Positions 206-40,951 of a DNA stretch of 61,978 nucleotides are shown here, in pieces (within the stretch, counting starts at the first letter, position 1; each line of letters starts with the position of its first letter). Position numbers and translations under genes: made by a program. The notes below the pieces were generated by a model that was not told the origin of the DNA, made no database searches, and saw only the letters and a program-made list of their open reading frames with translations. This DNA comes from a virus (taxonomy: Duplodnaviria; Caudoviricetes). The DNA lies in the IMG/VR virus record IMGVR_UViG_3300033153_003306, positions 1 through 61,978 of that record. One strand, 5' to 3'.

Positions 206-1951
206 TTAGTGCATGTGTGGGTATTGATTATTAAAAGGTGAATTTAATTCTCCATCATCTATAAAATCTCTACGGGGGTTAGACATTCTACCTCTATTAG
301 TAATTCGTCTATTATTATTTCCCTTACCACCTTTTTTACTATTTTTATCTTTTTTAACTTTCTTAAAGATACCATATGCTGTGTGTTCGTTCCAAATACC
401 TCTATCATGATGTTTCCAATCTTCAAATCCAATTTCTTGGTATGCTTGTAATACGAATTCATCAACTATATCATCATCTTCAAATTTAGTAATATTTACC
501 ATATCATTATATTCTTTGTCCGTATATCTTACAGCACATACTTTCCAGTTGTTGAAATCTTGATATTTTTTCTTACCTTTTCCAACTCTGTCTAAGAATG
601 CTTTCATTTTCTTTAATATTTTTGGTGGTATTGGTTCTTTTTTCTCATCATCATCTAAACCTTTCATTATATTACCATCATCGTAATCTGAATCGCTATT
701 TGCTAAATCTATTTCTTCCCATCCATCGGCATCATCATCATCATATTCATCATCCCAATTATTATTTGCTGCACCACTTCTAGTACCAGCACCGTGATAT
801 CCACTACCATAACCACCATATTCTTCTTCATACCAATCATCGTAGCTTGAGCTATTAGCTCTACCACCATAACCACCTTGATATACTTTATTTTCAGGTT
901 TAAGGTCAAATCTTGGTAAATCACCAGCTAAGAATGTTCTAAGGAAATCTAATACTCTTTGCCATTCTTTAATAATAAGATGTTCTGCTGCTCTATGCTC
1001 ATTATAATAACCAACACTAAAGTTAACACCACATACAGTTTCGCACAATGTACAAATATCTGTAAATGATGACCTGTTTGGTTCACTAAAGAAAGTGTTT
1101 TTATTTATGAAGTTTCTAAATTCTGATGAACCAACATAATAACATTTATAATCAGTAGCACCTTGTCTATCTAACTGTATAAAGAAATTATGATTATCTT
1201 GTATATGTTTATGTAATTCTTTATCGCCATTCACTAATGCTTTTGCACCTATTCTACCAACTTCTTCATAATTAGTAATAAGAATTGAATGACCTGTTTC
1301 TTTAGCTATTAAATAAAGCATAGCAATACCTGCTCTATCATCAGCACCCAAACCACTATGTGGATTAGATGGGAATACTTTACCTTCCTTAATATGCGGA
1401 TTTGCGTATTCATACTTTGGACCGTTACCATCCCATACTGTATCAGCATGTGCAAGTAATAGAACTCTTTTTTCAGGTGGTAAACTACCTTCTATATAAT
1501 GATAGTTTCCATCAGTAGCACCAAATTTTTCAAATACTTCTGCTGTTCTATTCAATGGAAGTTTTAAGAAATCCATTAATACTTTTAAATCACCTGTAAC
1601 TGGTTGGTCACTTGTATATTGTGGTATTTTATAATGTGTATCATTCCACCAGTCAACAATACCAGTAACTTGTTTTTCGGCTTCTGAATAATTAGTTACA
1701 TCTTCTGGTTCAGCCCTATCAGTTAAAATATTATATATTTCTGTTAATGTTACTATTTCTTTTGGTGTTGCATCTTTACTTCTTATTATTTTAATATACT
1801 CTTTAGAAAAATGAGTCCAAAATGAACTATCAGTATATTCTATATCTAATAATTCTTCTAAAACTAAGATAAACTTATCTCTTGCAACATTAATAATTTT
1901 AACTTTATTCTTGTTTTTATTTTTCTTACTTTTTCTCTCTAATAAATCCAT
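206..1951 (-). CDS. Zn-dependent M20/M28-family peptidase-like protein with Gly/Tyr/Asp-rich low-complexity C-terminal region
   Basis: Metal-ligand motifs AHADTV, GADDRAG, EEVG, LDR and YYNEH. Confidence 0.75.
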   Translation of the reverse strand: MDLLERKSKKNKNKNKVKIINVARDKFILVLEELLDIEYTDSSFWTHFSKEYIKIIRSKDATPKEIVTLTEIYNILTDRAEPEDVTNYSEAEKQVTGIVDWWNDTHYKIPQYTSDQPVTGDLKVLMDFLKLPLNRTAEVFEKFGATDGNYHYIEGSLPPEKRVLLLAHADTVWDGNGPKYEYANPHIKEGKVFPSNPHSGLGADDRAGIAMLYLIAKETGHSILITNYEEVGRIGAKALVNGDKELHKHIQDNHNFFIQLDRQGATDYKCYYVGSSEFRNFINKNTFFSEPNRSSFTDICTLCETVCGVNFSVGYYNEHRAAEHLIIKEWQRVLDFLRTFLAGDLPRFDLKPENKVYQGGYGGRANSSSYDDWYEEEYGGYGSGYHGAGTRSGAANNNWDDEYDDDDADGWEEIDLANSDSDYDDGNIMKGLDDDEKKEPIPPKILKKMKAFLDRVGKGKKKYQDFNNWKVCAVRYTDKEYNDMVNITKFEDDDIVDEFVLQAYQEIGFEDWKHHDRGIWNEHTAYGIFKKVKKDKNSKKGGKGNNNRRITNRGRMSNPRRDFIDDGELNSPFNNQYPHMH

Positions 1952-2838: not shown

Positions 2839-3888
2839 TTATCTCCCAAACCGACTCGATGGGCGAGTATTAGTATCTCTTGCATGGTCTTCCGTTTCAT
2901 CAAGAACATCACCATCTTCAAGAGCTTCTTCAATAATTTCATTTGTAACATCAAGTACAAGTTCATTAAGGTCTTCAAGGTCGGCAAGTTCAGGAATTTG
3001 GTCAGTAATATTATCACTAACATCAACATTACTATTATAATCATATAATGATACATTAAACACATAACTAAGGTTTCTATTAAACATTAAATGTGGTGGT
3101 GTATCGTTAACATATTCTATTTGATATAGTTGTTCTAACTTAGGTATCCATAATAAATCAGTTATCTTAGGTCTGATATCTACTATCTTTGTAATTGTAA
3201 TTGTAAAATCAGTAGGTACTAATTCTTCATCTATTATATCAACCCCATCGTTTGGTGTTAATGTAATTTCAGTTCTCCAAACAAATATTTGTTCTTCACC
3301 TACCCATGTTTCTATTTCGTTATAAGCAATAGCACTAACGATATAATCTGCATTATTAGTAGCTTCACCACAACCTGCTAATGTAACAGTATCACCAGTA
3401 TTTATATCTGTGTATAAATCTTCGGCTGTAAGGTCTTGATTATAGAAGTAAACAGTGTCATCTTGAATAAATGTACTGTGTTCCATAGTTTCAGCAATTT
3501 CAAATGTTCTTTCATGTTCAATATAAACAGTGTCGTGGTCTACCATATTTTGGAAATATGACATTGGTGCATAATATGTAAGTTCACCTTCGTTAATAAA
3601 TGAAAAACCATTACTAACAAAATTATGTGATATATTATCATCTACAACATCAGGATTCCACAGTAAAACTTCAAAAGCTCTATCAAGAACCTTTGTTCTA
3701 CTTTCACCAAAGAATTCATCTGTGTTGAAGTGGTCTACTGTAATATAATATGCTTTATCCCCATATAACCTAAGTATATCACGATATATAACATCCATCA
3801 AAAGAAAATCTTTTGAGTAGTTATCGGTATTCATGTCGTTGTTATAACGCCACGCATTTCCAGGTGTTGGGAAAGGACTATCTGCCAT
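2839..3888 (-). CDS. Neck/head-closure protein, T4 gp14-like, with an internal insertion
   Basis: LYGDKAYYI...D.FFGE N-terminal pattern and RP...DLLWIP....LYQIEYV C-terminal pattern; upstream of the gp15-like gene. Confidence 0.7.
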   Translation of the reverse strand: MADSPFPTPGNAWRYNNDMNTDNYSKDFLLMDVIYRDILRLYGDKAYYITVDHFNTDEFFGESRTKVLDRAFEVLLWNPDVVDDNISHNFVSNGFSFINEGELTYYAPMSYFQNMVDHDTVYIEHERTFEIAETMEHSTFIQDDTVYFYNQDLTAEDLYTDINTGDTVTLAGCGEATNNADYIVSAIAYNEIETWVGEEQIFVWRTEITLTPNDGVDIIDEELVPTDFTITITKIVDIRPKITDLLWIPKLEQLYQIEYVNDTPPHLMFNRNLSYVFNVSLYDYNSNVDVSDNITDQIPELADLEDLNELVLDVTNEIIEEALEDGDVLDETEDHARDTNTRPSSRFGR

Positions 3889-4450
3889 TATTTGCCTTTT
3901 TAATTTCTGCTTCTAAGTCATAAACATCTTTTATTTCGCCACTCATAACTTTATCCGATAATAAGTTTAAAAATTTATATATATCTTTTGTTAATGATTT
4001 ATCTAATTTTTTTTGAGCTTCTATCATTAAAGTGCCTATTATTTTGATTAGTTCGGATTTATTGTATATTTTTTTTCTTTTGCGTTTAAAATAGATGTTC
4101 ATTATTTGTCCAATAACATATGACGCAATAGCAATATTCATCATCGCATCTTCGTTCAATATATTTTCATATAATCTTAATACATTAGTCTTCATTACAT
4201 TCCCTACAGTATTTATTATTCCGTTATTCATCGGCATTACATCTGCACCAAACTCACCATCTTTAATTCTACCTTCATTTCTTTTATTATAACAATCTTT
4301 ACACATTACACGCATTTGTTGTCGTTTGACACAAAATTCACATAATCCTTTACCACAATCATCACAATTAGTAGTAGCCGTATCACCACATGTTGCACAA
4401 CCTTTGCCTTCTTTCAATAGTTCTTCATATAATCTATATAAATTATTCAT
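3878..4450 (-). CDS. Hypothetical protein with Cys-rich Zn finger and two leader-like segments (LYEELLKE, LYENILNE)
   Basis: ORF track; four CxxC pairs; translationally coupled to neighbours. Confidence 0.55.
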   Translation of the reverse strand: MNNLYRLYEELLKEGKGCATCGDTATTNCDDCGKGLCEFCVKRQQMRVMCKDCYNKRNEGRIKDGEFGADVMPMNNGIINTVGNVMKTNVLRLYENILNEDAMMNIAIASYVIGQIMNIYFKRKRKKIYNKSELIKIIGTLMIEAQKKLDKSLTKDIYKFLNLLSDKVMSGEIKDVYDLEAEIKKANNGR

Positions 4451-4694
4451 TATGTGCTCTCCACATTTTCATCAATTTTATTTTAGTCTTTAATGGTACA
4501 CCACTAAGACAGCTACAACCACCATTAGTTCTTTGCCCTGTTTTATTTTTAGCAAAATAACAACCATGATTACCGCAGTCACGTCCTGAAAGTTCTTTGA
4601 TGATTTCTTCTTTCTTATCGTTTTTTAATAAATTTTCAAAATCGACATTACTTTCGTTTAATACTTCTTCATATAGTTCTTGTAAGTTTGTCAT
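4443..4694 (-). CDS. Small hypothetical protein with LYEEVLNE leader and a Cys cluster (CGNHGC...GGCSC)
   Basis: ORF track; ATGAATAA overlap with the next gene. Confidence 0.55.
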   Translation of the reverse strand: MTNLQELYEEVLNESNVDFENLLKNDKKEEIIKELSGRDCGNHGCYFAKNKTGQRTNGGCSCLSGVPLKTKIKLMKMWRAHNE

Positions 4695-5883
4695 ATTGTT
4701 CCTTTAAGCTTTCTTCTATAGTAGAGTTAACTTCTCGTATCTTATCATCTATAGCTTTTATATTATTTATATTTATATTGTTGTCTAAAACCCAATCTAA
4801 CACATTTTTTCTTATTATTCCTAATCTTTTTCCTGGTCCAATACCAAGTACATCCATTATATGCTTACCATTAACAACTGTTTTAATAACATCTAATGCG
4901 TTTTTATCTTTAAATCTATCTTTCATTTTATCTACAAAGTCTGTTACACGTTTCCATCTTACAGGGTTAAATGCGTGTAGTCTTGATTTAGTATCTGCTT
5001 CTGAAACTTTATACAGAACATCCCAATAAGGACTATCCATAATATTCATAACCTTAGAACCTTTCATTTTCCATAAATCATGAACTTTCATATGATGTTC
5101 TGACACATACTTCAAACAGTTCTTAGTATTGTTGTCAAGTTTTAATCTTTTAGCTATTTTATTAATTCTTTCCATACCTGCTGCTTCATGACCGTGATAG
5201 TGCCAACCTGTTTCATCACTTGATTGTGTATCAAGTTTACCTACATCATGGAATAATATTCCTAAATTAACCATAGGGTCTGAACTATCAGCAACTCTTA
5301 ATGCTTGTAAGCTATGTTTAAACACATTCCCTTCTGGGTGATGTTTTTCAGTTTGTGGTAAGTCATCTAATTCAACTATTTCGGGTAATATATGTTGTAA
5401 TAATCCTGTTTCTTTTAATATAATAATAGCATTAGCAAACTGTTTACCATTACCTGCCATTTTCATTAGTTCTTTAACAATTCGTTCAACTGCTTGACCT
5501 TTTATATTAGATGAGTTAGACTTAATAGCATCCATTGTCTCTGGGTCTATTTTAAAGCCCATTCTCGAAGCAAATCGCACAGCCCTTAACATTCTTAGGT
5601 AATCCTCTTGGAATCGCTTATTTGGGTCTCCTACGGTTCTTAAAACCTTATTCTTTATATCACCATGACCATCAAAATGGTCTATAACATTACCATCCTT
5701 ATCAACAGCCATAGCATTTATAGTAAAATCTCTTCTTTGAGCATCTTGTTTGTAATCCATAACAATTTTTACACTTGATGGATATCTTCCACTGTGTACT
5801 GTTTCCCATTCAACAACTTCATATTTAGATGGGTCTAAATGGTCAGGATTATTAGAATTATATTTTTCTATTTTATTTGTCAT
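4669..5883 (-). CDS. cca: CCA-adding tRNA nucleotidyltransferase, C-terminal part (motifs B-E + HD domain)
   Basis: RRDFTINAMA, EDYLRMLRAVRF, ERIVKEL, HHPEG.VFKH, LFHDVGK. Confidence 0.9.
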   Translation of the reverse strand: MTNKIEKYNSNNPDHLDPSKYEVVEWETVHSGRYPSSVKIVMDYKQDAQRRDFTINAMAVDKDGNVIDHFDGHGDIKNKVLRTVGDPNKRFQEDYLRMLRAVRFASRMGFKIDPETMDAIKSNSSNIKGQAVERIVKELMKMAGNGKQFANAIIILKETGLLQHILPEIVELDDLPQTEKHHPEGNVFKHSLQALRVADSSDPMVNLGILFHDVGKLDTQSSDETGWHYHGHEAAGMERINKIAKRLKLDNNTKNCLKYVSEHHMKVHDLWKMKGSKVMNIMDSPYWDVLYKVSEADTKSRLHAFNPVRWKRVTDFVDKMKDRFKDKNALDVIKTVVNGKHIMDVLGIGPGKRLGIIRKNVLDWVLDNNININNIKAIDDKIREVNSTIEESLKEQYDKLTRTI

Positions 5884-6712
5884 TTCTATTTTTTCTTATA
5901 AATTTATAACCTTTTAGTTTTCCACTGTTTATTGTTCTATTATATTTACCCGATGCTTCTATTGTAGATATGGATACCTTATTTTTTTTAGCCCAATCTT
6001 TTATAAAAATTATGTTATCATCTATTATTATGTTATCTTTTATAATAGTATATGTATATTTAATTAATTTATTTCTCATATTATAAACTGCTTCTTTTGT
6101 ATGTTTTTTACCGTACATGCCATTATTAGAACCTTTCATTGAACCATTTTCTATTATATGTTTTTTTCTCTTTTCATTAATTTCTTTTGAAGTCATTAAT
6201 TTTACAAAATTATTTTTATATGTTGGATTATCACATCTTTTTTTAGCAGACTTACTCATTTTTTCTTTTGTTATTTTGTTTCGTTTTTGACCTATTCGTT
6301 TATCTGTGTATTTTTTAACTCTTTTATCATCAATAGTTAAATCTTTATTCCAAGGTATCTTACCTTTTTGGGAATCACTAATTTTTTTATAAATTTTATC
6401 TTTTTCAGGATGAAATTCTAATATATATCCACCTCTACCACCAATTACCATATTATAAGTTTCTTTATCAGTTATAAAATTTTCATTTACAATCCATTGT
6501 TCAACATCATAGGCTGTTTGTTTATCTATAAAATCAAAAATAATTTCTTTTTTAAAGTTTTCTATTCCATACTTTTTCTGTGCTCTTTTAAGATGTTTAC
6601 CACTACCCATATAATCATCATTTAAATTATCTGTAGAATGAACCCCGATATAAATTTTATTATTCTTAAGATTTATTATACTATATATAGTATTATGTTT
6701 ATGTTCTTTCAT
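5873..6712 (-). mobile_element. GIY-YIG (Seg-like) homing endonuclease with NUMOD3-like motifs, inserted between the two cca halves
   Basis: [20 protein letters not shown]...YMGSG; GKKHTKE motif; own TATAAATA promoter. Confidence 0.85.
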
Positions 6713-6776
6713 TTTAATCCTTTTATTATTTTATATCTTTATTTATAAAATAATTTCGACAAGATGGTAAATATTT

Positions 6777-7172
6777 TTAAACTTTTCTTACATATTTTGG
6801 TGTTTTATAATTATCGTGACGAAAATTTGCAATTTCGTAAGTAAAACCACCTTCATTAATAACCATAATCCCGAAGTCTTTATTTTTTCCTATATTGAAA
6901 GTTTTAAAGTATTTTTCTAAAATATCAACATCTACATTTGTGGCTATATCTATATCATCAGGTTCTTTATCGCCTGTTATTATGTCTCTTATAGCCCCAC
7001 CGACTATGAAAGCCCTTGGATTTTTTATATTATGTTTTTTACCAATTTCTTCAATTTCTTTTAATAAATCAACACCAACCTTTAACATAGGAATTCTATC
7101 AATGTAACCTTGCCAATCATTAATAGTTGTTTCTAATAAGTTTATATATTTTTCTGTTATTAGTTTATTCAT
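6777..7172 (-). CDS. cca: CCA-adding enzyme, N-terminal catalytic part (motif A) with MNKL..KY..LLE leader
   Basis: FIVGGAIRD...DDIDIATN and EIANFR; start placed at MNKL (7172) by analogy with the neighbouring genes. Confidence 0.88.
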   Translation of the reverse strand: MNKLITEKYINLLETTINDWQGYIDRIPMLKVGVDLLKEIEEIGKKHNIKNPRAFIVGGAIRDIITGDKEPDDIDIATNVDVDILEKYFKTFNIGKNKDFGIMVINEGGFTYEIANFRHDNYKTPKYVRKV

Positions 7173-7620
7173 TCCAATTACCTGCATTATTCATCCTAAG
7201 TTGTGCATCATGTTTATAGTTGTTAAACACTATACGAAAATTATGAAGATTATATTCACCACCTTCAACCGCACTACCAAGTATACTACTACTTCGATTA
7301 AAAGCTTCACCATTAAAAGGTCTTGTAAGGAAATCAACGACTATATTTTGTCTATCAGGAAAAACACGACTATCTACAACACTTAACATAGTTTCAATAT
7401 AATAATTAACACCAGTCCTACTCCATAACAACCCATTATCGGTTAATTCATCACGTACTGTCCACCCTTCCATATTAAAAGTGTGTATTATTTTAGATAG
7501 TTTTGAAAGTGCATCTGAATCATTTTCAGGTGTGATTTTTTCTTCATCATCTAACTTACCCGAATCAATATCTTCCCAACCTTCAAGTAAATCTACATAT
7601 TTAGTCATTAGTTTATTCAT
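7165..7620 (-). CDS. Tag-domain protein (1 unit): leader + GWEDIDSGKLDDEE + ~125-aa variable domain
   Basis: Shares the leader and tag with neighbouring genes. Confidence 0.75.
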   Translation of the reverse strand: MNKLMTKYVDLLEGWEDIDSGKLDDEEKITPENDSDALSKLSKIIHTFNMEGWTVRDELTDNGLLWSRTGVNYYIETMLSVVDSRVFPDRQNIVVDFLTRPFNGEAFNRSSSILGSAVEGGEYNLHNFRIVFNNYKHDAQLRMNNAGNWNE

Positions 7621-8448
7621 TGTCTACTCATTTCTCTTGTTGTGTATTTAAAATATTCTTTAAACCATCTAACAAAACCTTCAACATTTTCTCCCAATGT
7701 TCTGTCAAGTCTTCCAAATATAAGTCTTAAATCATTAATAGCGTCGCCATCATGTGGTATTGTGGTGTAATGTGATTCCATAGTAATATTATTATGTTGG
7801 TCAATATACATACTAACTTTAATATCATAATCATGGTAATCAGAAGACCATAATAACTCTTGGTCTGTTAACCTATCACTAACATACCAACCATCAATGG
7901 TTATATCGTATATAGCATCAATTAAATCAACGAATAATACTTCTGAGGATACATTTTCTTCATCATCTAACTTATCTGAATCAATATCTTCCCAACCTTC
8001 ATCTAACTTATTATAATATTCTAATGCCATTGATTCCCATAGTTTATACTTACATTTATGATATTCGTCTAAGGTATTATCAATATTATTATTCCAAGGA
8101 CTTTCTTTCGCTATAACAAACATATCAGTATTATCCAGTAACCAACAAGTGTGTGTTCCTGTTGTATAGTTAAAATACTGATGATTAATAATATCACCTT
8201 TATCATTATTAAGTTTTATATGTAACAGATGCCCACCACCATTATCCCGATAAGTTGCTGTTATATGGTGATGTCTACCTTTAATAGTAAAATCACCATA
8301 ATCATCGAATAAAGTACAAATTTCTTCTATCTTATTTTTTAGTTGGTCACCACCGCTAAATTCTTTTTCTTCATCATCTAACTTACCCGAATCAATATCT
8401 TCCCAACCTTCAAGTAAATCTACATATTTAGTCATTAGTTTATTCATT
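7537..8448. repeat. 85-bp identical direct repeat (7537-7621 and 8364-8448) encoding leader + tag
   Basis: Read directly from the sequence. Confidence 0.85.
7617..8447 (-). CDS. Tag-domain polyprotein (2 units)
   Basis: True start is likely MNKLMTKY at 8447 (85-bp identity to the start of 7165..7620); tags after LLE and LDE. Confidence 0.75.
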   Translation of the reverse strand: MNKLMTKYVDLLEGWEDIDSGKLDDEEKEFSGGDQLKNKIEEICTLFDDYGDFTIKGRHHHITATYRDNGGGHLLHIKLNNDKGDIINHQYFNYTTGTHTCWLLDNTDMFVIAKESPWNNNIDNTLDEYHKCKYKLWESMALEYYNKLDEGWEDIDSDKLDDEENVSSEVLFVDLIDAIYDITIDGWYVSDRLTDQELLWSSDYHDYDIKVSMYIDQHNNITMESHYTTIPHDGDAINDLRLIFGRLDRTLGENVEGFVRWFKEYFKYTTREMSRQ

Positions 8449-9276
8449 ATTATTTGCCAAATATCTATGTAATTGTCTATCAAAAATTTGTAATGCTTCC
8501 AACGTGTTTGAATGTGAATTATTAGCAATTTGATAATATATAACATGTCTGTGTTTTGAATCGTCATATCGTGATACTAATGTGTTACCATTTAGTCTAA
8601 AGTTTATTTTTAATGTTGCCCCATCACCACTTTTGATAAATCTTATAAAATCAATACCAATAGAAAATCCCCTCCAACCATGAATAAATACATCCCTATA
8701 AATAGCTGATACATCTTGCATAAATTCATCAAGAGTAAAACTATCGTTAACTTCTCCACTATCTTCGTTTTCTTCATCATCTAAGGCATCACTATCGATA
8801 TCATCCCAACCTTCTTTTAATTTCGTAACATCTTTCTTTTTATTATAATAGTTCTGTACCATCATATTCCATATATGATACCTACAATTTTGATATTCTG
8901 TAGTTACATCATCAAAAGTTTTATTCCAATCATTAGTTACGGCATTCACCCACAACGCATGTGCATCCTTGCGTAACCAACAACTATGTTGTCCTATTGT
9001 ATAATTAAAAAATTGGTGATTAATCAATTCACCATCATTAAATAGTTTTATGTGCATATTATCAAAACCACCTTGATTCACGTATTCTGCTGATAAAGTA
9101 AGGTGATTACCTCTAATATTAAAATCGTCACCATCTTTTTCGAATAACTCACAAAGTTTTATAATATTAGATTCTATGGTATTAACTCCAACTTGTTCTT
9201 CCTTATCTAATGAATCACTATCAATATCTTCCCAACCTTCAAGTAAATCTATATATTTTGTAAATAGTTTATTCAT
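8440..9276 (-). CDS. Tag-domain polyprotein (2 units); first domain paralogous to that of 7617..8447
   Basis: LINHQFFNYTIGQHSCWL vs IINHQYFNYTTGTHTCWL; two tags. Confidence 0.75.
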   Translation of the reverse strand: MNKLFTKYIDLLEGWEDIDSDSLDKEEQVGVNTIESNIIKLCELFEKDGDDFNIRGNHLTLSAEYVNQGGFDNMHIKLFNDGELINHQFFNYTIGQHSCWLRKDAHALWVNAVTNDWNKTFDDVTTEYQNCRYHIWNMMVQNYYNKKKDVTKLKEGWDDIDSDALDDEENEDSGEVNDSFTLDEFMQDVSAIYRDVFIHGWRGFSIGIDFIRFIKSGDGATLKINFRLNGNTLVSRYDDSKHRHVIYYQIANNSHSNTLEALQIFDRQLHRYLANNNE

Positions 9277-10331
9277 TAGAATCCTGGTCCACCTGCCGCA
9301 CCACCATCAGCACCTAAAGTAACACTACTATCACTTGGTGGGTTAACTAAACCTTTTACATCACTTGTACCACTTGGTACTATAACAGATTGTTTTCTTA
9401 CCTTATTCTTTTGGTCTTTTTCTAATGCTTTCTGTTTCTTAGTTTCTGTGTTATAATGATTAGCAACCATATTATCTAATCTTGATTCTTTTATATATTT
9501 TAAATTATGTTCTTGTACCCAATGTTCAACACCTTTATATAATATTTTTACTGTTGGAAAGTTGAGTTTATCATTTCTACCAATAACGTCGACAATCGCA
9601 CCTTTTGGTACTATTGTTTCTACATCAGCATCAGCAAATTTACCTATATCGTAATAATCTCTTTTTTCTACAGGCTCTTTTAATACCGCTTTCTTAGAAC
9701 TACTTTCTTCTAATACATCACTACAGTAAGGGCAACTAAAATCTTCTGTTAATCCAAAGTGATAACTTACACCACCACAATTAGGACACATTAATTGATT
9801 ATCATCATCACAATCTTCATCCATAAATGGTTCAATACTTTCTTTATTAATAGTAACAAAGTTGTTCATAAAGGTATCATTATCAATTACAAAGTCATGC
9901 TTCTTATTAGTTCTTTTCTTAATAGCAGAAGAAACATAAGAATTATACTCATCTTTGTTAAGTAAATAGAAATACTCACCTCTGTAAATAGTACTTGGTT
10001 TGTTGTTAGTATCAAATGCATCAACATCAACCTTACTTGCAAACAAGTTACTACTTTCACTAATACTATCAGCGTCAGGTCTATCAGCATTTATAATATC
10101 ACCAATAATCTTTGAATATTCTTTAGGATTACTAATACCAATCTTATTAGTTGCATTAACAGGTAATGAGTCAGCATTCGTATCAGTATTATCCATCCAA
10201 TCTTTTAATTTTAATAAACCTTCAACTCCATCAGTTTTTCTGATATCGTTAAGGTGTTCTTTCATTTTATCTGAAAGGTGTGTTAGTTTTTGTTCTAACA
10301 TACTTTTAATTTCTTCTTTTGTATATATCAT
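9276..10331 (-). CDS. Hypothetical multi-segment protein (Zn ribbon CPNC/CPYC, SH3-like segment), late-expressed
   Basis: TATAAATA at 10361-10368; ISE/LEE/IKE sites between segments. Confidence 0.55.
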   Translation of the reverse strand: MIYTKEEIKSMLEQKLTHLSDKMKEHLNDIRKTDGVEGLLKLKDWMDNTDTNADSLPVNATNKIGISNPKEYSKIIGDIINADRPDADSISESSNLFASKVDVDAFDTNNKPSTIYRGEYFYLLNKDEYNSYVSSAIKKRTNKKHDFVIDNDTFMNNFVTINKESIEPFMDEDCDDDNQLMCPNCGGVSYHFGLTEDFSCPYCSDVLEESSSKKAVLKEPVEKRDYYDIGKFADADVETIVPKGAIVDVIGRNDKLNFPTVKILYKGVEHWVQEHNLKYIKESRLDNMVANHYNTETKKQKALEKDQKNKVRKQSVIVPSGTSDVKGLVNPPSDSSVTLGADGGAAGGPGF

Positions 10332-10373
10332 ATTAATCCTCTTATTATCTTGTATATTATTATTTATAATTAA

Positions 10374-13064
10374 TTATTCAGCAATTCTGGACAATACCCG
10401 ATTATTTAACACATTTAGACACAATTCACTAATTCTTTCGTATTCTGTATTTACATTAAAACTACCAGTAAATAGTGCTGATAGTTCTTTACCAAGTTCA
10501 TTAAATGTTGTTAGTAAAAAATCGAACACGGTATCATCATCTACCCCACGACTACCACCAGAATTATCAGTATCCCATAAATTTATAGTTATAGTATTTT
10601 TATCATTTGATAGGGTTATATTATTATCATTAATAGTAATATTCCAATTGTCTGCATGTTGTTGTCTGATATCATTTAGTACACGGTTCGTTATATCTGT
10701 TGTAAACTCCCTAATTGTTATACCATTTTCTACACGCTTTACATTTTCTTCATCATCTAACATACCTGAATCAATATCTTCCCAACCTTCTTGTAGTCCT
10801 ATATCAGTATATTCTTCAACAATTCTACGTACATCGTTATCTAACATTCTTATCAAACTATCACCAATAACATGATAATTATTACCGAAATCAAGATTAT
10901 CACCAACATAACTATCATATTCGTCATCGCTATCAATATAAACTTGTGCTAAAAAGTTAAAATTTCCATCAACAAAAGCCAATTCGTCAAGGGGTGATAA
11001 ACTCAATGGTCGTATTTTTACAACAACTTCATGGTTTGATAACTCTATATAATGCAAATTATTTACTTCTAAAAAGTTTCTATTCCAATCCTTAAAAAAT
11101 TCAGAACGTTCTAAATAATGACGAATCATTCTACTAGTGATTTGGTTTAGCATTTGTTTATTTGTGGTATGTGTTAGTGTTCTTCTTGGTTGTCCTTTTG
11201 GTATAATTTGTTCTTCATCATCTAATGCGTCACTATCAATATCTTCCCACGCTTCGCTAAGTTCAAACAATTTTCTCATCACTTTTAAATAAAATCTACG
11301 ATATATACCAAATATACTATCTAATGGTGAGTCAGAAGACCAATGTTCATTACCATTAACAAACGTAACTCTATTATTAATTTTTATTCTTCCAAAAAAT
11401 TGGTAAACCCCTTCTGATGCTAAACTATCATCGTGTAAATTTAAATCATCTGTTACCCAAGGTTCGATAATTATTTTATCTTTACCATTAATAAATGTAA
11501 CAATATGTGGGTTCGCACTTTGAAGTCTTTCTTCTCTTGTTAAATGTTTCCAACCACTAGGAATTTTTGTTAGTATATTAAGTGGTTCACCTAAACCATC
11601 AACATAATTCTCTAATGTTTGTTGTCCTGGTGTTGTAATATTTTCTTCATCATCTAACTTAGCTGAATCAATATCTTCCCAACCTTCACTTATTTGTTTT
11701 TTAGCATTATTTAGTACTCTGGTTAATAACTGGCTAAATATTTTGTGATTTTCACCAACTGCACCACCAGTATTACATCTTTTACTAAACAATCCATTAC
11801 CATAATGCACATCATCTTTTAATAAAGCTGAATAGAAATGATAATCCATAACCCCTGTATATTCAGCACTTAAAGGATTAACAGTTTGATTAATAGGTAA
11901 TGCGGAGAAGAATATTTCCCATCCATCCTTACGTAAATATAAAAATCTTCTACTGCTTGTATTATAAGTGGGGGTATTCCAATTATATTCTACTTCCCAA
12001 CCATTCATACTTGGCGCATCTATCCAACTTCTATTAATAGCACCATTGATGTTACGCATTATTAGACCTAACATATCGTCATTAGTGAATACTTTTTCAG
12101 GTTTTTTGTTTGATTTATCTTCTTCATCATCTAACTTAGCTGAATCAATATCATCCCAACCTTCATATACACTCCCTGTAATATGTGTTTTATTAAACAT
12201 TTTCCCTAAGTGATGTACACCCATATCACTTTCCATTTTTTCTATAAACTCGTCAACAGTGCGACAAGACATATATGCCCCGAAAAAAGTAGCGCTATTG
12301 TCTTCATGTTTTTTATAAACCTTTGGTACTACACGATTTGCACTACTACCTTCATCTATAAATATTTGTATGTGTATTTTATATTTAGGGTGGCTCCACA
12401 CCATTTTGTTATCACCGATGTAATTAACAACCCATCCATCAATAGCCCATTTACCACTAACAGATTTAATATGCTTTATTATGTTTTCACGCGTAATGTT
12501 TGGAAGTGTTTTACTTTCTTCATCATCTAACTTAGCTGAATCAATATCTTCCCACGCTTCATTTAATGGTATTTTATAACCATTATCAATAAAATTGAGG
12601 TATCTTCTAGTAACATTAGTCATAACTACTCTCATTAGGGATAAATATAGCTCTGATTGTGCCCTGGTATTATCATATTTTTGAAATGGTATTACTCGTT
12701 CACCATATATAGAGTCAACATATGCTTTATCATCTTCTACCCCCATTGTAGTTTTTGCTTTTATTAACATTTTTTCTTCACTACCATAAAAAGGTATTGT
12801 TTCAAATATTAAATTTTTATCCCAATCCCACCAAGTAATATATAATTTTTTGGACGTATCTAAATTGGTAATTTGAAAATCTATGTTTTTAAATAGGGGG
12901 TCTTTTTTTCTATCTATAGCGACAGTGGTTGCAAACTTCTTTGCATAGTCGTATAATAGGTTGGGGTTCTGTTCTTCATCATCCAATGCAACTGAATCAA
13001 TATGATGAACATGCTCTTCTTCTAATATATATTCTTGATATATTTCATCTATTTGTTTTGTCAA
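10374..13064 (-). CDS. Tag-domain polyprotein (6 units, 896 aa)
   Basis: Five canonical and one degenerate WEDIDSxxLDDEE tags spaced ~130-155 aa apart; GGAGG RBS before a TTG start. Confidence 0.8.
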   Translation of the reverse strand: MTKQIDEIYQEYILEEEHVHHIDSVALDDEEQNPNLLYDYAKKFATTVAIDRKKDPLFKNIDFQITNLDTSKKLYITWWDWDKNLIFETIPFYGSEEKMLIKAKTTMGVEDDKAYVDSIYGERVIPFQKYDNTRAQSELYLSLMRVVMTNVTRRYLNFIDNGYKIPLNEAWEDIDSAKLDDEESKTLPNITRENIIKHIKSVSGKWAIDGWVVNYIGDNKMVWSHPKYKIHIQIFIDEGSSANRVVPKVYKKHEDNSATFFGAYMSCRTVDEFIEKMESDMGVHHLGKMFNKTHITGSVYEGWDDIDSAKLDDEEDKSNKKPEKVFTNDDMLGLIMRNINGAINRSWIDAPSMNGWEVEYNWNTPTYNTSSRRFLYLRKDGWEIFFSALPINQTVNPLSAEYTGVMDYHFYSALLKDDVHYGNGLFSKRCNTGGAVGENHKIFSQLLTRVLNNAKKQISEGWEDIDSAKLDDEENITTPGQQTLENYVDGLGEPLNILTKIPSGWKHLTREERLQSANPHIVTFINGKDKIIIEPWVTDDLNLHDDSLASEGVYQFFGRIKINNRVTFVNGNEHWSSDSPLDSIFGIYRRFYLKVMRKLFELSEAWEDIDSDALDDEEQIIPKGQPRRTLTHTTNKQMLNQITSRMIRHYLERSEFFKDWNRNFLEVNNLHYIELSNHEVVVKIRPLSLSPLDELAFVDGNFNFLAQVYIDSDDEYDSYVGDNLDFGNNYHVIGDSLIRMLDNDVRRIVEEYTDIGLQEGWEDIDSGMLDDEENVKRVENGITIREFTTDITNRVLNDIRQQHADNWNITINDNNITLSNDKNTITINLWDTDNSGGSRGVDDDTVFDFLLTTFNELGKELSALFTGSFNVNTEYERISELCLNVLNNRVLSRIAE

Positions 13065-13077
13065 TCGACAATCCTCC

Positions 13078-14025
13078 TTAATCTAGTGAATCATCGTCTT
13101 CTAATATTGGAGTAAGTCCTTCTTGCACACAACTAATAAAATAATTCACATCTAAATCTTTTGGTTTTTTTGGGTCGAAATCTGGTTCGTATGGTATGAT
13201 TCTTTCTTCTAATATTTGTTTTCTATCTCTACGAGTTTTCACAACTCTTATATTTAAAGCACCTTCATAGAATATTGTAATTTTATATTTCCAATTACTA
13301 ACTCTTGAACCTCTTCTGCCTTCTTCATCACTAATTCTCCAAAGTGCTAAACTTGGATACATATTACTTCCATATCCTGAACGAATTTGCTTATATGTAA
13401 ATCTTTGTTTTACACCCTTAACAACATAGTAAGCATTACGACTCATTACTTTATTAGAGATTGTTGCTCTCATTTGTTCTTTATCTGCGAATGTATATAG
13501 TTTATGTCCTAATTCTTTGCTTTCTTCTTTATCTATATCACTATGGTCTAATTTATCCCAACTTCTTTCTTCGTTGATAGTAGGGTTATTAAGTGGGTCA
13601 AATTCTTTTAGTTTCTGACGAATACTACCCAATGATAGTTCATGTATTATTGTTCCTATTAGTCGTTCATAGTCTGCATCAGCATCCCACGTTGCATCAA
13701 ATGGTATAGTGTATTCGTCTAAAAGGTCACCACCACGTGCAATAGCACATACAATACCATGTGCTCCTTCCCAAAAAGGTGTAGTATATATTAATATCTC
13801 TGATTTAGGGTTTGACCATTCCCAAGCACCCGCAAAACTTAATTCTAAACTCCATCCATTAATTTCGTGATTTCTTAGTCTATCGTTTAGTTCCCAACCA
13901 TATCTGTATAATTCTTTTGGTCCATCTGTTTCTACATTTTCTTCATCATCTAATGCACTACCATCGATATCATCCCAAGCTTCATTAACTATATCATTAT
14001 ATTCATCTGTTATAAAAAATTTCAT
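13078..14025 (-). CDS. Tag-domain polyprotein (2 units)
   Basis: VNEAWDDIDGSALDDEE and degenerate INEERSWDKLDHSDIDKEE. Confidence 0.75.
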   Translation of the reverse strand: MKFFITDEYNDIVNEAWDDIDGSALDDEENVETDGPKELYRYGWELNDRLRNHEINGWSLELSFAGAWEWSNPKSEILIYTTPFWEGAHGIVCAIARGGDLLDEYTIPFDATWDADADYERLIGTIIHELSLGSIRQKLKEFDPLNNPTINEERSWDKLDHSDIDKEESKELGHKLYTFADKEQMRATISNKVMSRNAYYVVKGVKQRFTYKQIRSGYGSNMYPSLALWRISDEEGRRGSRVSNWKYKITIFYEGALNIRVVKTRRDRKQILEERIIPYEPDFDPKKPKDLDVNYFISCVQEGLTPILEDDDSLD

Positions 14026-14037
14026 TTTATATTCATC

Positions 14038-14562
14038 CTATGTTTTAGGTGTAAATTTATCATACTTCGACCTTAGTTGTTCGAGCTTACGTGTTATATC
14101 TTTAATATAATCGTCTATAGCTTCATCTTCTGTTACGTGCATAGCGAAATTAGACATGTTAAAATCACCAAGTTCTGTGTGTATCACATTACCATCAATA
14201 GTACAATCGTATTTAAACTTCCAATCTAATATCTTCTCGTATTTGTCACCAGGTTGTGGGTATATTAATTCTGTATTCATTTTAATAATTGCCACATGGT
14301 TTGTGTGTCTAATAGGTACATTAACATATAATGTTCTTTTTGAATTAGTAATTATGCCTTGCATCTCAGGCATGTAATGTATCTCACACCATGTAGGCAC
14401 TTTATTATTTTCGTGTATTCGTGTGTGTATTGCATGTACTATATTTTCTAATTGTACTTCACAAGATGGACTGTTAAAACTATCTTCTTCTTCGACACTC
14501 CAATCAACAACCCCATCGGCTTCTGATAATAATTGTTTATAAATATCATTTATTTTGCTCAT
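14038..14562 (-). CDS. Hypothetical protein with IYKQLLSE leader and acidic Trp-containing segment (possible distant tag-family member)
   Basis: LLSEADGVVDWSVEEEDS. Confidence 0.55.
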   Translation of the reverse strand: MSKINDIYKQLLSEADGVVDWSVEEEDSFNSPSCEVQLENIVHAIHTRIHENNKVPTWCEIHYMPEMQGIITNSKRTLYVNVPIRHTNHVAIIKMNTELIYPQPGDKYEKILDWKFKYDCTIDGNVIHTELGDFNMSNFAMHVTEDEAIDDYIKDITRKLEQLRSKYDKFTPKT

Positions 14563-14571
14563 GTTTTATCC

Positions 14572-15246
14572 TTATATTTTAAACGCCATATCATTAAAGT
14601 CGTTCTTTACATAACAGTTAGTTCCTGACATGTGTTGAAACTCTAATACATATTGAAGTTCTTTACTTCTTAATGAATGTTTGTATCTGTCACCTTTTGA
14701 AATGTTTTGAATAATATTAACACTTTCAGGGTTATGGCATTCAACAATGTAATGGTTCTTCATAGGGTTAAACACTATTTCGTTTTCATATACTTTACCT
14801 GTTTTGTCGTGATTAACTAATAAGAACTCATTTTTCTTTTGTTCTATAATGAATGTCTTATATTCTCTTCTACCCATAGCATAATGTTCTTTAATAGCAC
14901 CTTGGTCTTTGGCTTCTATCTTTGGAAATATACTAAAGAATTCAGTAGACTTTTGACTATCTACAATTCCTGTCTGATTAAAGATTTCATCAGCATCTTT
15001 CATACTTCTAACATATTCAGCACCACTATCTCTTCTAGTGAAGTTTTGTTCGTGGTCATACTCTTCTACATCGTCTGTATATCTTTTCTTCGTCTTTTTC
15101 ACTACTGCTTTACCAGGAATATTCTTAACATCATCATAAGCATTAGGTGATACAGTTGCTTCTTCTTTTTCTTTCTTCTTCTTATCACATTCTAATAGAC
15201 CTTCTGGGTATTTGTCTTTAATGTGAAGTATATCTTTCATTTTCAT
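14572..15246 (-). CDS. Hypothetical late protein
   Basis: ORF track; AAGGA RBS; TATAAATA at 15282-15289. Confidence 0.55.
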   Translation of the reverse strand: MKMKDILHIKDKYPEGLLECDKKKKEKEEATVSPNAYDDVKNIPGKAVVKKTKKRYTDDVEEYDHEQNFTRRDSGAEYVRSMKDADEIFNQTGIVDSQKSTEFFSIFPKIEAKDQGAIKEHYAMGRREYKTFIIEQKKNEFLLVNHDKTGKVYENEIVFNPMKNHYIVECHNPESVNIIQNISKGDRYKHSLRSKELQYVLEFQHMSGTNCYVKNDFNDMAFKI

Positions 15247-15294
15247 GTTATATCCTTATTATTTTTATTTAATTATATAGTTATTTATAAAAAG

Positions 15295-16447: not shown

Positions 16448-16771
16448 TTATCCTATATTATTTTTAAGAACACAACCTAACCAAATACCTGCATTTGGAT
16501 TGATTCCGTCACTGTTATCGTTTAAGAACTGTACCCATACTTCATCATCAACATCAGGTATATCGCCTGTTCTATATAGTGAAGGAGCACAATGGTCTAC
16601 CCATATACCAAAGTCTTTCTTTTTAAACTTATCTTCTATATCATGTACACCAATAACTCTAACATACAATCTTTCTCTGGCTAAAGGGTCTTGGTTGTTT
16701 AATACTTTACCTATAAATATTCCATTTAAGGAAACATCAGTATATTCTATATCACTTTTCATTATTTCCAC
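16448..16771 (-). CDS. Baseplate hub gp5-like N-terminal OB-fold domain (stand-alone)
   Basis: FIGKVLNNQDPLARERLYVRVIGVHD...P.VDDEVWVQF. Confidence 0.75.
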   Translation of the reverse strand: MEIMKSDIEYTDVSLNGIFIGKVLNNQDPLARERLYVRVIGVHDIEDKFKKKDFGIWVDHCAPSLYRTGDIPDVDDEVWVQFLNDNSDGINPNAGIWLGCVLKNNIG

Positions 16772-18057
16772 TTAATTAAATTATTACTACTATACATATC
16801 ACTATTTATACCATCAGTTACAGCCATTATTTCTTGTAAGTAGGTTTTTGATGTAAACACGTGTTTAATACCACTAATCAAGAATTTTCCTGTATATACA
16901 TCATCGGGTACATGATATTCTTCGTTTTCAGTATTAACTGTTAATTGACTAGGTATGTCAATACTTATAATTTGACCAATTTTTCTATCAATATATCCTT
17001 CTACACTTATTCTAATTTCATACATATCAAGTAACATTCTATTCAATTTGGTATCCATATATCCTTGAAGGTACTCTTTACAATTACCACAAGGGCTAAT
17101 ATCTGTTGTGTTAGTTTCGTAATTACCCAACATTTCTTTATTTACACATAAGTATTCAGATAGTTTAGTACCCAAGTTCTTAGTATCAGTAATATTCTTT
17201 TCGTGTGTATCTACGGTATTACTTTCTAAATCAATATAACTATATGTAGACTTAAAGAAACCTTTATTAGCCATCTTCATATAATTAGGAACTTTCATAA
17301 ATTGCATTGTTATTACTTTGTTGAAGTTTCTATTAGATGAAAATAAACTATGATTTTCTTTTACTGTCTTATCTACAGGGGGTGGTATATATGTTTCCAT
17401 ATTATCGTATATGCCCAAAGCACCTTCAAATAAACTAGGTATTGTTACAAAGTTTAATGTTCCGTCTAAATTCTGAAAGAATAATACACCAGCTCTGTTA
17501 CCTTCTGCAACAACATAATCACTCATATCAGTTAAACTTTTCAATGGTGTCCATTTTGGTGTTGTGTAAGTAATTTTTTTAACATACTTTTCATAAAACT
17601 TTGGCTCTACACCAACTGTATTACATAAATCATTAGCAATTTGTTTAAATGTCTTATCGTGAAATGCCTTACTCACAGGGGTTGTATACGCGTTTAACAT
17701 ATTCCCAGCGGTAAAGTATACACAAACGTCACGATATGGCTTCTTTGATAGGTCTATCGGCATTTGAACGCTTTTATATACATCGAATGTATAATCATTA
17801 TAAAATGGTTGTATTGTATCATATAATTCATCAGCAGTCTTAGGTAACACAGGCTTTTCTATTGTTATTTCTAACTTATCACCCATCATAGGCATAACAT
17901 TCTGCCAAAAATCTCTATCTGTTATAGTAAGTTCCCCTATTATATGTGGTGTAAATATATTTTGTGATATAATCAGTTCACCAACTTCTATAATATCCAA
18001 TGGGTGTTCTGTACCATCACTTTTAATATATGTAACTTTTGTTAATACGTTAGACAT
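16762..18057 (-). CDS. Baseplate hub protein, gp27-like
   Basis: Size, position between gp53 and gp5-OB, and G....IGQII.I.IP...D..YTGKFLISGIKHVF C-terminus. Confidence 0.65.
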   Translation of the reverse strand: MSNVLTKVTYIKSDGTEHPLDIIEVGELIISQNIFTPHIIGELTITDRDFWQNVMPMMGDKLEITIEKPVLPKTADELYDTIQPFYNDYTFDVYKSVQMPIDLSKKPYRDVCVYFTAGNMLNAYTTPVSKAFHDKTFKQIANDLCNTVGVEPKFYEKYVKKITYTTPKWTPLKSLTDMSDYVVAEGNRAGVLFFQNLDGTLNFVTIPSLFEGALGIYDNMETYIPPPVDKTVKENHSLFSSNRNFNKVITMQFMKVPNYMKMANKGFFKSTYSYIDLESNTVDTHEKNITDTKNLGTKLSEYLCVNKEMLGNYETNTTDISPCGNCKEYLQGYMDTKLNRMLLDMYEIRISVEGYIDRKIGQIISIDIPSQLTVNTENEEYHVPDDVYTGKFLISGIKHVFTSKTYLQEIMAVTDGINSDMYSSNNLIKWK

Positions 18058-18544
18058 TGTTTGCTTTATCCTTTAATGCTTTAATATAGTTAGTAATGTA
18101 ATCAGGGTTTATTATTTTAATTTGTCTTTTCCTATTGTAATGTTCAAATAATAAGTCTTGGTATGTTCTTAGGTTATAGTAACCTTGACCATCACCATTA
18201 TCATCGGGTACATCATTGTTATATAATTCATCTGCTAATTCTAATATATCATTATCGTTTAATATCCAATCGAAAGGATTGTTTATTTCATTAACTAATA
18301 ATATAATCCACCAATAATTAGGGTTATTATATAAGTCAAGTGCTATTCTATCTAATCTGCTATCTCTTGGTACTACATAATCATCTAACCATTCTTCTTC
18401 TATTACAGTATTCCATCGTCTTACGTTACTTAACTCTGGCATTGTAATTTTATTAGTCTGATAGTAGTCGAATTTGATATCTTCATCATCTAAGTAATCA
18501 GTAAAGTTTATTTCATATGTTTTTAATAAATCAAAAAAGTGCAT
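18050..18544 (-). CDS. Baseplate wedge protein, gp53-like (LysM-like)
   Basis: RLDRIALDLYNNPNYWWIILLVNEINNPFDW. Confidence 0.8.
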   Translation of the reverse strand: MHFFDLLKTYEINFTDYLDDEDIKFDYYQTNKITMPELSNVRRWNTVIEEEWLDDYVVPRDSRLDRIALDLYNNPNYWWIILLVNEINNPFDWILNDNDILELADELYNNDVPDDNGDGQGYYNLRTYQDLLFEHYNRKRQIKIINPDYITNYIKALKDKANNV

Positions 18545-22010: not shown

Positions 22011-22181
22011 TTACCTGTTTTCATTTCCGATTGTTTTTATTGTCATCCAATATTCAACGTCAAATTCATAAGGATACATGCCATCGATTTCATCGTGACT
22101 GTAACCAATTACTCGCTTCATTAGGAATCTTCTACTAATAAAATCCTCTAGCGATAAATCAGTTACACTTGTACGAAAAAA
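22011..22181 (-). CDS. gp51-like tail/baseplate chaperone C-terminal segment, probably reached by -1 frameshift (alternative ATG at 22121)
   Basis: Open -1 frame FFRTSVTDLSLEDFISRRFLMKRVIGYSHDEIDGMYPYEFDVEYWMTIKTIGNENR*; slippery T TTT TTC at 22175-22181. Confidence 0.65.
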   Translation of the reverse strand, partial: FFRTSVTDLSLEDFISRRFLMKRVIGYSHDEIDGMYPYEFDVEYWMTIKTIGNENR

Positions 22182-25933: not shown

Positions 25934-25993
25934 TTATTTAAATCTCCATTTATTCATTATATATTTATTTATATAATCGAGTATGTTATTTAT

Positions 25994-40720: not shown

Positions 40721-40951
40721 TTATTCTTCTAATAGTTTTTTAAGGTCATACAATAGCATATTATATACTGACATTCTCCCTAATTTTATACCTTCGTTTA
40801 GTACATCATCCATATCCTCATAATCTACTTCAAGTATTTTTAAGGAATCCCAACCCTTTTCTTTACAATTGGTATATTTTTCAATTATATTGTTTAGTTT
40901 TTCTTTATCCACACTTAGTCCAACCACAATGTTTACACACTGCACAACCAC
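40721..40951 (-). CDS. Hypothetical protein (start uncertain)
   Basis: ORF track. Confidence 0.4.
   Translation of the reverse strand: MVVQCVNIVVGLSVDKEKLNNIIEKYTNCKEKGWDSLKILEVDYEDMDDVLNEGIKLGRMSVYNMLLYDLKKLLEE

Follow-up and report, generated by a model that had tools for sequence, protein, structure and literature searches.

The prohead protease of phage T4, gp21, cuts after a hydrophobic-x-Glu motif. The T4 internal proteins (IPs) are described as diverse defence proteins sharing only the capsid-targeting sequence (CTS) (PMC3012670); in the T4 leader, residues 4 and 7 are reported as those on which targeting depends, residues 8 and 10 as those on which processing depends, and L-I-E is stated to fit the gp21 cleavage logo (PMC9026906). 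For phage SPN3US, the paralogs gp53 and gp54 are reported to have identical N-termini with 34% overall identity (PMC5694885). Here, we analyzed a complete linear IMG/VR virus record (Duplodnaviria; Caudoviricetes; IMGVR_UViG_3300033153_003306) of 61,978 bases, hereafter the window, whose completeness rating in that resource is 28%. Five minus-strand genes in the window (7165-14025) carry a short acidic peptide, here called the tag, and split at their tags into 13 units of 109-147 amino acids (aa). We tentatively read these genes as polyprotein arrays of cargo domains that would be cut apart by a head protease, packaged in the capsid, and injected into the host, a reading to which we give a little less than even confidence.

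The five genes contain 12 tags of canonical form and one degenerate tag at the start of gB. The genes and tags are listed below, together with the residues in front of each tag (GW and type 2 denote the two kinds of units considered further on; nt, nucleotides).

13078-14025, minus strand: gA, 315 aa; leader, tag, unit gA_1 (GW type, related to gB_1), degenerate tag, unit gA_2
13939-13989, minus strand: tag gA_t1, preceded by V-N-E-A
13522-13572, minus strand: tag gA_t2, degenerate (W-D-K-L-D...), the sole one of 18 without a cut-like motif in front
10374-13064, minus strand: gB, 896 aa, TTG start; leader, degenerate tag, six units parted by five canonical tags
12972-13028, minus strand: first tag of gB, degenerate and lacking W, with I-D-S-x-x-L-D-D-E-E retained
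12516-12566, minus strand: tag gB_t2, preceded by L-N-E-A
12120-12170, minus strand: tag gB_t3, preceded by V-Y-E-G
11643-11693, minus strand: tag gB_t4, preceded by I-S-E-G
11211-11261, minus strand: tag gB_t5, preceded by L-S-E-A
10746-10796, minus strand: tag gB_t6, preceded by L-Q-E-G
8440-9276, minus strand: gC, 278 aa; leader, tag, type-2 unit, tag, GW unit
9196-9246, minus strand: tag gC_t1, preceded by L-L-E-G
8770-8820, minus strand: tag gC_t2, preceded by L-K-E-G
7617-8447, minus strand: gD, 276 aa, its start set at the MNKL methionine rather than in the longer open reading frame (ORF) reaching 8567; leader, tag, type-2 unit, tag, GW unit
8367-8417, minus strand: tag gD_t1, preceded by L-L-E-G
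7956-8006, minus strand: tag gD_t2, preceded by L-D-E-G
7165-7620, minus strand: gE, 151 aa; leader, tag, single GW unit (the unit modelled below)
7540-7590, minus strand: tag gE_t1, preceded by L-L-E-G
7537-7621, no strand assigned: 85-nt stretch with 100% identity to 8364-8448, covering leader and tag of gE and gD

The tags of these genes have the form W-[DE]-[DEK]-[IL]-D-x3-[LI]-D-[DK]-E-E. A six-frame scan of the window with W[DEK][DEK][IL]D gave 13 matches, all on the minus strand, 12 of them within 7165-14025 and one at 721. The preliminary description of this DNA had set near-invariant tags beside strongly diverged domains, and this holds: the invariant or near-invariant columns of the tag are E, W, D, I, D, L, D, E, and E, columns that are invariant or at least 90% conserved occur in the tag only and nowhere in the bodies, and the bodies show 15-36% identity to the first unit in a forced alignment. 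Directly in front of 17 of the 18 canonical tags, counting those of the window and of three related proteins from other sources (P0005, P0006, and P0008, described below), stands [LIVM]-x-E-[GA]. As far as the residues can be compared, this motif is shaped like the site at which the T4 IPs are cut; both IPII and IPIII, read from NC_000866, start with M-K-T-Y-Q-E-F-I-A-E followed by A. The first tag is degenerate in gB, P0005, and P0006, in each of which E-G-W is lost and I-D/P-S-x-x-L-D/N-D/N-E-E is kept.

The tags are also uniform at the DNA level, and their synonymous sites vary less than codon bias predicts. Among the 11 canonical window tags tabulated for codon counts, Leu is encoded by TTA in 11/11 cases (genome share 56%), Ile by ATA in 0/11 (genome share 50%), and Lys by AAG in 6/6 (genome share 21%). 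The Ser codon alternates between TCA/TCG and AGT, and Gly/Ala as well as Glu/Asp alternate, while the peptide pattern stays constant; since the Ser codon switches between these two sets, the tag peptide is under selection too.

The match at 721 lies in a 581-aa protein (206-1951, minus strand), part of which resembles an M28 peptidase (PHROG peptidase, E = 5e-26; the Pfam M28 score of 20.7 bits falls slightly short of the cut-off of 21.3). Near 721 this protein has a long acidic linker with a tag-resembling G-W-E-E-I-D, which is neither preceded by the cut-like motif nor completed by L-D-D-E-E. An EF-hand was also considered for the tag and discarded on inspection by eye, since the hydrophobic residues and glycines are out of place for it.

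The preliminary description had further noted a (G/D/N)W motif after most tags. All 11 of the motif strings that it quoted are present in the translations, and [GDN]W follows the tag in 9/13 units, 23-42 residues past it. In 5000 residue shuffles of the same units, the count of units with [GDN]W (W lying 20-45 residues past the tag end) averaged 1.7 with a maximum of 7, and 0/5000 reached 9; this P-value is optimistic because the motif was defined after looking. Any W in the same interval, counted alone, gave 9 observed against 6.0 expected, which is not significant (P = 0.08). The units without [GDN]W are gA_2, gB_1, and the type-2 units gC_1 and gD_1; in the MAFFT alignment, gB_1 and both type-2 units have D-F or G-D-F at the GW position. 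The second domain type (INHQxFNYTxGxHxCWL), which had been said to occur twice, is borne out by gC_1 and gD_1 (43% identity over 118 residues, E = 1.5e-30).

When the genes were split at the tags and the units aligned all against all, as had been proposed, three small clusters emerged and the rest remained singletons. The first cluster found by BLASTP and phmmer contains gD_2, gE_1, and gB_2 together with unit 2 of P0005 and unit 3 of P0006; the second contains gB_1 with its orthologs in P0005 and P0006, gA_1, and unit 3 of P0005; the third is the type-2 pair gC_1/gD_1, leaving eight units as singletons. Among these clusters, the highest hhalign probability was 13.6%. We also carried out a leave-cluster-out test with hidden Markov models (HMMs), in which 20 units were compared with 208 window ORF fragments plus 100 shuffles per unit. 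Only 1/20 units (gB_4) reached E < 0.01 and 2/20 (gB_4 and gB_5) ranked first against the decoys; all 20 units fell within the better 53% of ranks, a weak collective signal. An HMM of 14 units searched against all window ORFs found only its own training sequences, with no match to the neighbouring genes gU1, gU2, gZ, and the gene of a 190-aa protein. In the five tagged proteins, no Pfam family reached its cut-off and no PHROG matched at E < 0.001. The sequence statistics thus do not establish all 13 units as one family, and the paralogous units are too diverged for the ratio of nonsynonymous to synonymous substitution rates (dN/dS). The diversifying arms race suggested in the preliminary description would follow by analogy with the T4 IPs.

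Structure prediction gave a clearer picture. With a MAFFT alignment (A3) of the 13 window units and P0008 (14 units) as input, AlphaFold2 modelled the gE unit with a mean predicted local distance difference test (pLDDT) of 82.6 and a predicted TM score (pTM) of 0.72; AlphaFold2 of gB without the paralog alignment gave a pLDDT of 33.8, and the ESM Atlas model of gE had a pLDDT of 0.45. In the gE model, residues 1-20, comprising the tag, are of low confidence and unstructured (pLDDT ~57); they are followed by a helix (22-34), five strands (41-46, 51-56, 61-71, 79-89, and 96-104), and a helix (109-134). Strand 1 starts at the W of GW, and a second conserved W (L-L-W-S) lies in strand 2. AlphaFold2 thus returned, for the one unit modelled confidently, the anatomy of helix, GW, and beta-meander that had been described beforehand. 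In the poor gB model, 4/6 units are still ordered as a helix, 3-4 strands, and one or more helices. From the fold model and the alignment, the cut-like motif would fall at the end of the C-terminal helix of the preceding unit.

The preliminary description had assigned the units to one or two folds. The confident gE model speaks for this and the sequence statistics do not add a single family to it, so that the claim is supported, not proven. Of the aligned units, the two or three true homologs might by themselves account for the gain in pLDDT. Because of this, and with a single model at hand, we consider it probable that most GW units share one fold, and for the type-2 units, which in A3 keep the same register with G-D-(D)-F replacing G-W, the alignment register leaves inclusion in that fold evenly balanced.

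Foldseek searches with the gE model gave 0 matches at E <= 0.001 in PDB and in BFVD; the top rows, all non-significant, were single-stranded RNA (ssRNA) phage coat proteins and actin capping protein (both weak, TM <= 0.41) as well as uncharacterised phage proteins. Four small proteins of one uncultured siphovirus (ctnPP24) were among the best BFVD matches (probability 0.80-0.99, TM 0.39-0.58, E 0.015-0.11), a hint that this siphovirus, too, may encode several paralogs with a similar alpha-beta-alpha domain. The ESM Atlas structure matches of gE (TM < 0.45) were not used, nor was a DndB-like fragment that scored 0.94 there as a gE look-alike, a value within the range of shuffled proteins.

Tag-bearing proteins from other sources were found in three ENA and NCBI contigs: P0005 (contig of 79 kb), P0006 (214 kb), and P0008 (516 nt), each the sole member of its cluster. 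P0005 and P0006 were detected by an exhaustive HMMER scan. Word-indexed protein searches returned the window's own proteins and, in one search, P0008 beside five of these, and with P0008 as query they returned P0008 alone; they are lossy here, because both P0005 and P0006 were missed. The bodies of these relatives are 34-42% identical to those of the window or unrelated, with the tag peptide kept, and unit 3 of P0005 is nearest to gA_1 (E = 5e-12). The three related polyproteins (gB, P0005, and P0006) differ in the number (6, 4, and 3-4) and the order of their units. Judged by these alignments, units have been reshuffled among relatives while the tag has been kept at the protein level.

Further searches added no other relatives. 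No related loci were found in viral contigs via gB, the neighbouring tail protein, or alignment A4, and P0006 found nothing in genome contigs and phage records. Two degenerate tag DNA patterns gave 0 and 1 match in viral contigs, the single match being an unrelated acidic C-terminus; a tag DNA pattern hit 24 stretches in metagenome contigs, none of them a real tag, and 4 stretches in genome contigs, all one unrelated acidic bacterial protein. Across the bacterial and metagenome scans, the one natural sequence that repeatedly came close to the tag pattern was E-D-W-D-D-I-D-x-x-E-L-[DN]-x-E-E in an unrelated acidic helical protein of Lachnospiraceae and other Clostridia (L028-L031, L005, L013, L017, and L024). 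In L028 this sequence follows directly, in a single open frame, on a stretch that, read by eye, resembles the end of a UDP-GlcNAc 2-epimerase-like gene. This near-match was treated as chance similarity in an acidic region and not as a true tag.

With regard to its setting, the window has a G+C content of 27-36%, and nearly all of its long ORFs are on the minus strand. The Pfam matches above the curated cut-offs are T4_baseplate (54.4 bits, 22163-22909), Phage_gp53 (28.3 bits, 18050-18544), and the gp5-type OB domain Phage_base_V (24.3 bits, 16448-16771). PHROG matches include the structural proteins tail tube cap, tail protein, and head closure, as well as DnaB-like helicase, NAD ligase, ribonucleotide reductase (RNR), RtcB, gp32-like single-stranded DNA-binding protein, and DNA polymerase. 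The best relatives of a baseplate-region protein among cultured phages show 20-23% identity (24 records, all <60%) and belong to Rhizobium, Methylophilales, Sinorhizobium, Delftia, and Synechococcus phages; a megablast search of phage records with the region gave no match. To judge from these matches, the source virus is a distant T4-type phage. The tagged-gene cluster lies between the baseplate and neck genes, on the same strand.

A common leader extends beyond the tagged genes. The motif Y-x(2,3)-[LIVM][LIVM]-x(0,1)-E occurs in the first 22 residues of 9/10 genes of the cluster at 3878-15246 and in 3/58 ORFs elsewhere in the window (Fisher P = 4e-8, for a motif chosen post hoc). It is borne by gU2, gU1, gA, gB, gC, gD, gE, the N-terminal ORF of a CCA-adding enzyme, and the 190-aa protein, and gZ lacks its Y. 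The octamer TATAAATA has 23 coding-strand copies, of which 10 are intergenic, though only 8.8% of the DNA is intergenic. It lies 24-36 nt upstream of nine start codons (for example at 25966, 26572, 31863, 48379, and 57762, minus strand), and such spacing before the start is the geometry of T4 late promoters. The neighbouring features are as follows.

15282-15289, minus strand: TATAAATA, intergenic, 36 nt upstream of the gU2 start, resembling a T4-type late promoter
14572-15246, minus strand: gU2, 224 aa; first gene past the copy of TATAAATA at 15282, with leader-like Y-P-E-G-L-L-E
14038-14562, minus strand: gU1, 174 aa; cluster-type leader ending in L-S-E-A, then an acidic stretch with W; no match to the unit HMM
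10361-10368, minus strand: TATAAATA, intergenic, 30 nt upstream of the gZ start
9276-10331, minus strand: gZ, 351 aa, between gB and gC; leader-like N-terminus, zinc-ribbon-like CxxC...CxxC, without canonical tag
10174-10211, minus strand: apparent tag remnant in gZ, a 71% DNA match to the tag repeat, with L-K-D-W-M-D-N-T-D-T-N-A about 40 residues in
6777-7172 (ORF 6777-7187), minus strand: N-terminal piece of the CCA-adding enzyme, with an MNKL...Y-I-N-L-L-E leader as in gC, gD, and gE
3878-4450, minus strand: 190-aa protein, leader with L-L-K-E-G at its end, followed by a Cys-rich stretch; the final gene of the cluster to bear a leader

By its residues, the L-K-D-W-M-D-N-T-D-T-N-A stretch of gZ reads as a decayed tag. 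Outside the cluster, the leader motif was also seen in three ORFs among the replication genes (53494-54030, 54242-55078, and 56638-57735, minus strand), none with a PHROG match; these may be further leader-bearing proteins or chance matches.

What the analysis shows is how the genes are built, how often the motifs recur, a T4-type context, and a fold model of high confidence; cleavage, packaging, injection, and target binding are the course that we infer. Late in infection, polyproteins of one to six units would be made and bind the scaffolding core. A prohead protease of the gp21 type would recognise [LIVM]-x-E-[GA] and cut after its Glu; because each tag is preceded by this motif, cleavage would break the arrays up into 13 individual proteins of about 15-18 kDa that all start with G/A-W-E-D-I-D-S. 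Each product would consist of a disordered acidic tag and a domain of an alpha helix, a five-strand beta-meander, and an alpha helix. The acidic 13-mer would stay on the product, where it may dock to the scaffolding core or the capsid interior or aid exit through the tail. The released domains would remain in the head and be injected with the DNA, and their divergent surfaces on one scaffold could bind different host targets, for example defence proteins. A more far-reaching version, which we regard as doubtful, is that one small alpha-beta-alpha binding scaffold has been diversified into a library, whose members are multiplexed in polyproteins and freed inside the capsid by the head protease at a repeated cassette of cut site and acidic address, with the near-identical cassette DNA acting as the junction at which units are swapped, duplicated, and reshuffled between genes and between phages; it would amount to an injected, recombining repertoire of host-protein binders. 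To our knowledge, such a cargo organisation has not been described for T4 or any other phage.

Several points weigh against packaged and processed cargo. The putative cut would leave the most conserved block (W-E-D-I-D-S-x-x-L-D-D-E-E) on its C-terminal side, whereas in T4 the CTS is on the N-terminal side of the cut and is removed, and we know of no precedent for the most conserved part sitting after a cut. The cut motif is not avoided within the bodies, either in its strict form (2 observed vs 2.2 expected) or as [LIVM]-x-E (28 observed vs 22.8 expected). T4 IPII and IPIII are basic (isoelectric points 9.6-9.7), whereas 9/13 bodies here are net acidic even when the tag is disregarded. When IPII and IPIII were compared by phmmer with 11 cluster and relative proteins, the best E was 0.079, and the 50 PDB matches that Foldseek listed for the gE model include none of the T4 IPs; since the T4 IPs are themselves mutually unrelated, similarity to them is a weak criterion. 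TATAAATA is not enriched overall (29 vs 22.2 +/- 5), and the CCA-adding enzyme, an unusual candidate for packaging, has the same leader. Finally, genes for a prohead protease, a capsid protein, or a scaffold were not found in the 28%-complete record; Peptidase_S77, the gp21-type prohead protease, was not found in the window by a search whose control matched nowhere.

Some of these points would fit better if the proteins remained uncut and the tag, with its W, I, and L set among acidic residues, were a short linear motif for docking to one partner shared by all, be it a host machine or a phage hub. The variable domains would then bring different targets to that partner, or the reverse, and the proteins would act as cytoplasmic multivalent adaptors or inhibitors. 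Docking would account for 13 residues past the putative cut being conserved far beyond what a cut site needs, for the predicted lack of structure in the tag, for the first tags of three polyproteins that lose E-G-W and keep the remainder, and for cut motifs tolerated in the bodies. The docking partner would be hypothetical, however, and this explanation says nothing of the [LIVM]-x-E-[GA] before 17/18 tags, the T4-CTS-like leader on untagged neighbours, or the position among late structural genes; we consider it unlikely, though to be taken seriously. A structural part of the virion, such as a beads-on-a-string decoration, whisker, or fibre made of small-domain repeats with acidic linkers, is improbable. 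The adjoining baseplate and neck genes, the tandem repeats of a similar-sized domain at ~400-480 nt spacing, and the ssRNA-phage coat proteins as nearest, non-significant PDB matches would suit it, but in the single-unit gE and P0008 the tag stands directly behind the leader, where there is nothing to link. Moreover, repeats of structural proteins are usually far less diverged than 15-36% identity, unit number and order vary among the three related polyproteins (6, 4, and 3-4), and no Pfam or PHROG structural match was obtained.

The tag might also be conserved mainly as DNA, as 40-50 nt repeats homogenised by gene conversion that serve as cassette-shuffling junctions and encode a peptide of little function. 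Over-uniform synonymous sites, the 85-nt stretch identical in gD and gE, and the reshuffled units are what such a process would leave behind, but the Ser codons switch and Gly/Ala and Glu/Asp alternate under a constant peptide pattern, and the peptide is kept in three outside proteins whose bodies are 34-42% identical or unrelated. We judge this to be the least probable of the explanations; as shuffling junctions and protein function can coexist, it is also compatible with packaged cargo arrays.

If the genes do encode packaged and processed cargo, the T4 capsid-targeting principle would extend from N-terminal leaders to internal, repeated signals, so that one ORF could load a whole array of different small proteins, and a second, retained acidic address element without a T4 counterpart would be suggested. 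The 13 units would then be candidate injected inhibitors of host defences belonging to no known family, and the tag-plus-cut cassette could serve to load several foreign proteins at once into T4-like heads. Should there be no cleavage, the tag would still be an unexplained, strongly conserved short motif in four independent sources.

Other genes of the window show further features. The CCA-adding enzyme is split over two ORFs (4669-7187, minus strand): the N-terminal ORF, whose start overlaps the gE stop, has G-G-x-I-R-D and D-I-D, and the C-terminal ORF (4669-5883) has R-R-D-F-T-I-N. A GIY-YIG homing-endonuclease ORF (5873-6712), preceded by TATAAATA at 6740, lies between the two halves; no Rfam intron was found, and Rfam and tRNA scans of the whole window found nothing. 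The fragment also encodes an RtcB-type tRNA ligase (50408-51592; PHROG E = 1e-126) and has no tRNA genes; together with the CCA-adding enzyme, this ligase is possibly a tRNA-repair kit against host anticodon or CCA nucleases. The RNR large subunit (40905-44132, minus strand; 1075 aa) is matched internally, at residues 378-457, by an HNH-endonuclease PHROG, which suggests an intein or inserted endonuclease. Two further endonuclease ORFs were observed at 1954-2835 (PHROG homing endonuclease) and 47434-48348, the latter with an N-terminus like that of the GIY-YIG-type ORF at 5873.

Among described systems, polyvalent proteins resemble these arrays in being multidomain (2-15 domains), predicted to be injected with DNA, and processed to separate anti-host effectors (PMC5512222). 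As reported there, their domains are disparate and mostly recognisable enzymes, with zincin-type peptidases proposed for processing (PMC5512222); by contrast, the proteins studied here contain no Pfam domain, their units appear to be variants of a single fold, and every junction bears a copy of the tag.

The phiKZ-like phages (phiKZ, 201phi2-1, and SPN3US) offer inner-body or ejection proteins, many of which are described as being cut after Glu by a gp21-related protease at several sites per protein (PMC5694885, PMC9026906), and giant-phage head paralogs that are reported to keep identical N-termini while the rest diverges (PMC5694885, PMC9026906). The residue at P3 of their cut motif is given as small (S, A, or G, as in A-x-E and S-x-E) (PMC5694885), whereas it is L, I, V, or M before 17/18 tags here. 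Their propeptides are described as longer than 100 aa and removed, with no regular arrays of equal-sized domains in these accounts, and the baseplate genes of the present phage are T4-type and not phiKZ-type.

The locus is most like the T4 CTS/internal-protein system (IPI, IPII, IPIII, and Alt, with protease gp21), which we take as its nearest working analogue. It differs from that system in that the signal is also internal, with up to six repeats per ORF, and in that a 13-residue acidic block past the cut would stay on the product. The bodies are apparently of one fold and mostly acidic, unlike the basic IPII and IPIII, and they have no sequence or fold match to the T4 IPs. At the level of motifs, the leaders of 9/10 cluster genes and the [LIVM]-x-E-[GA] before 17/18 tags resemble the leader of T4 IPII and IPIII in shape. 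Both systems occur in a T4-type phage and have a short N-terminal leader with an aromatic residue shortly before hydrophobic-x-Glu and then a small residue, and in both, as far as the T4 accounts describe it, one signal is placed on otherwise unrelated or hypervariable small proteins (PMC3012670, PMC9026906).

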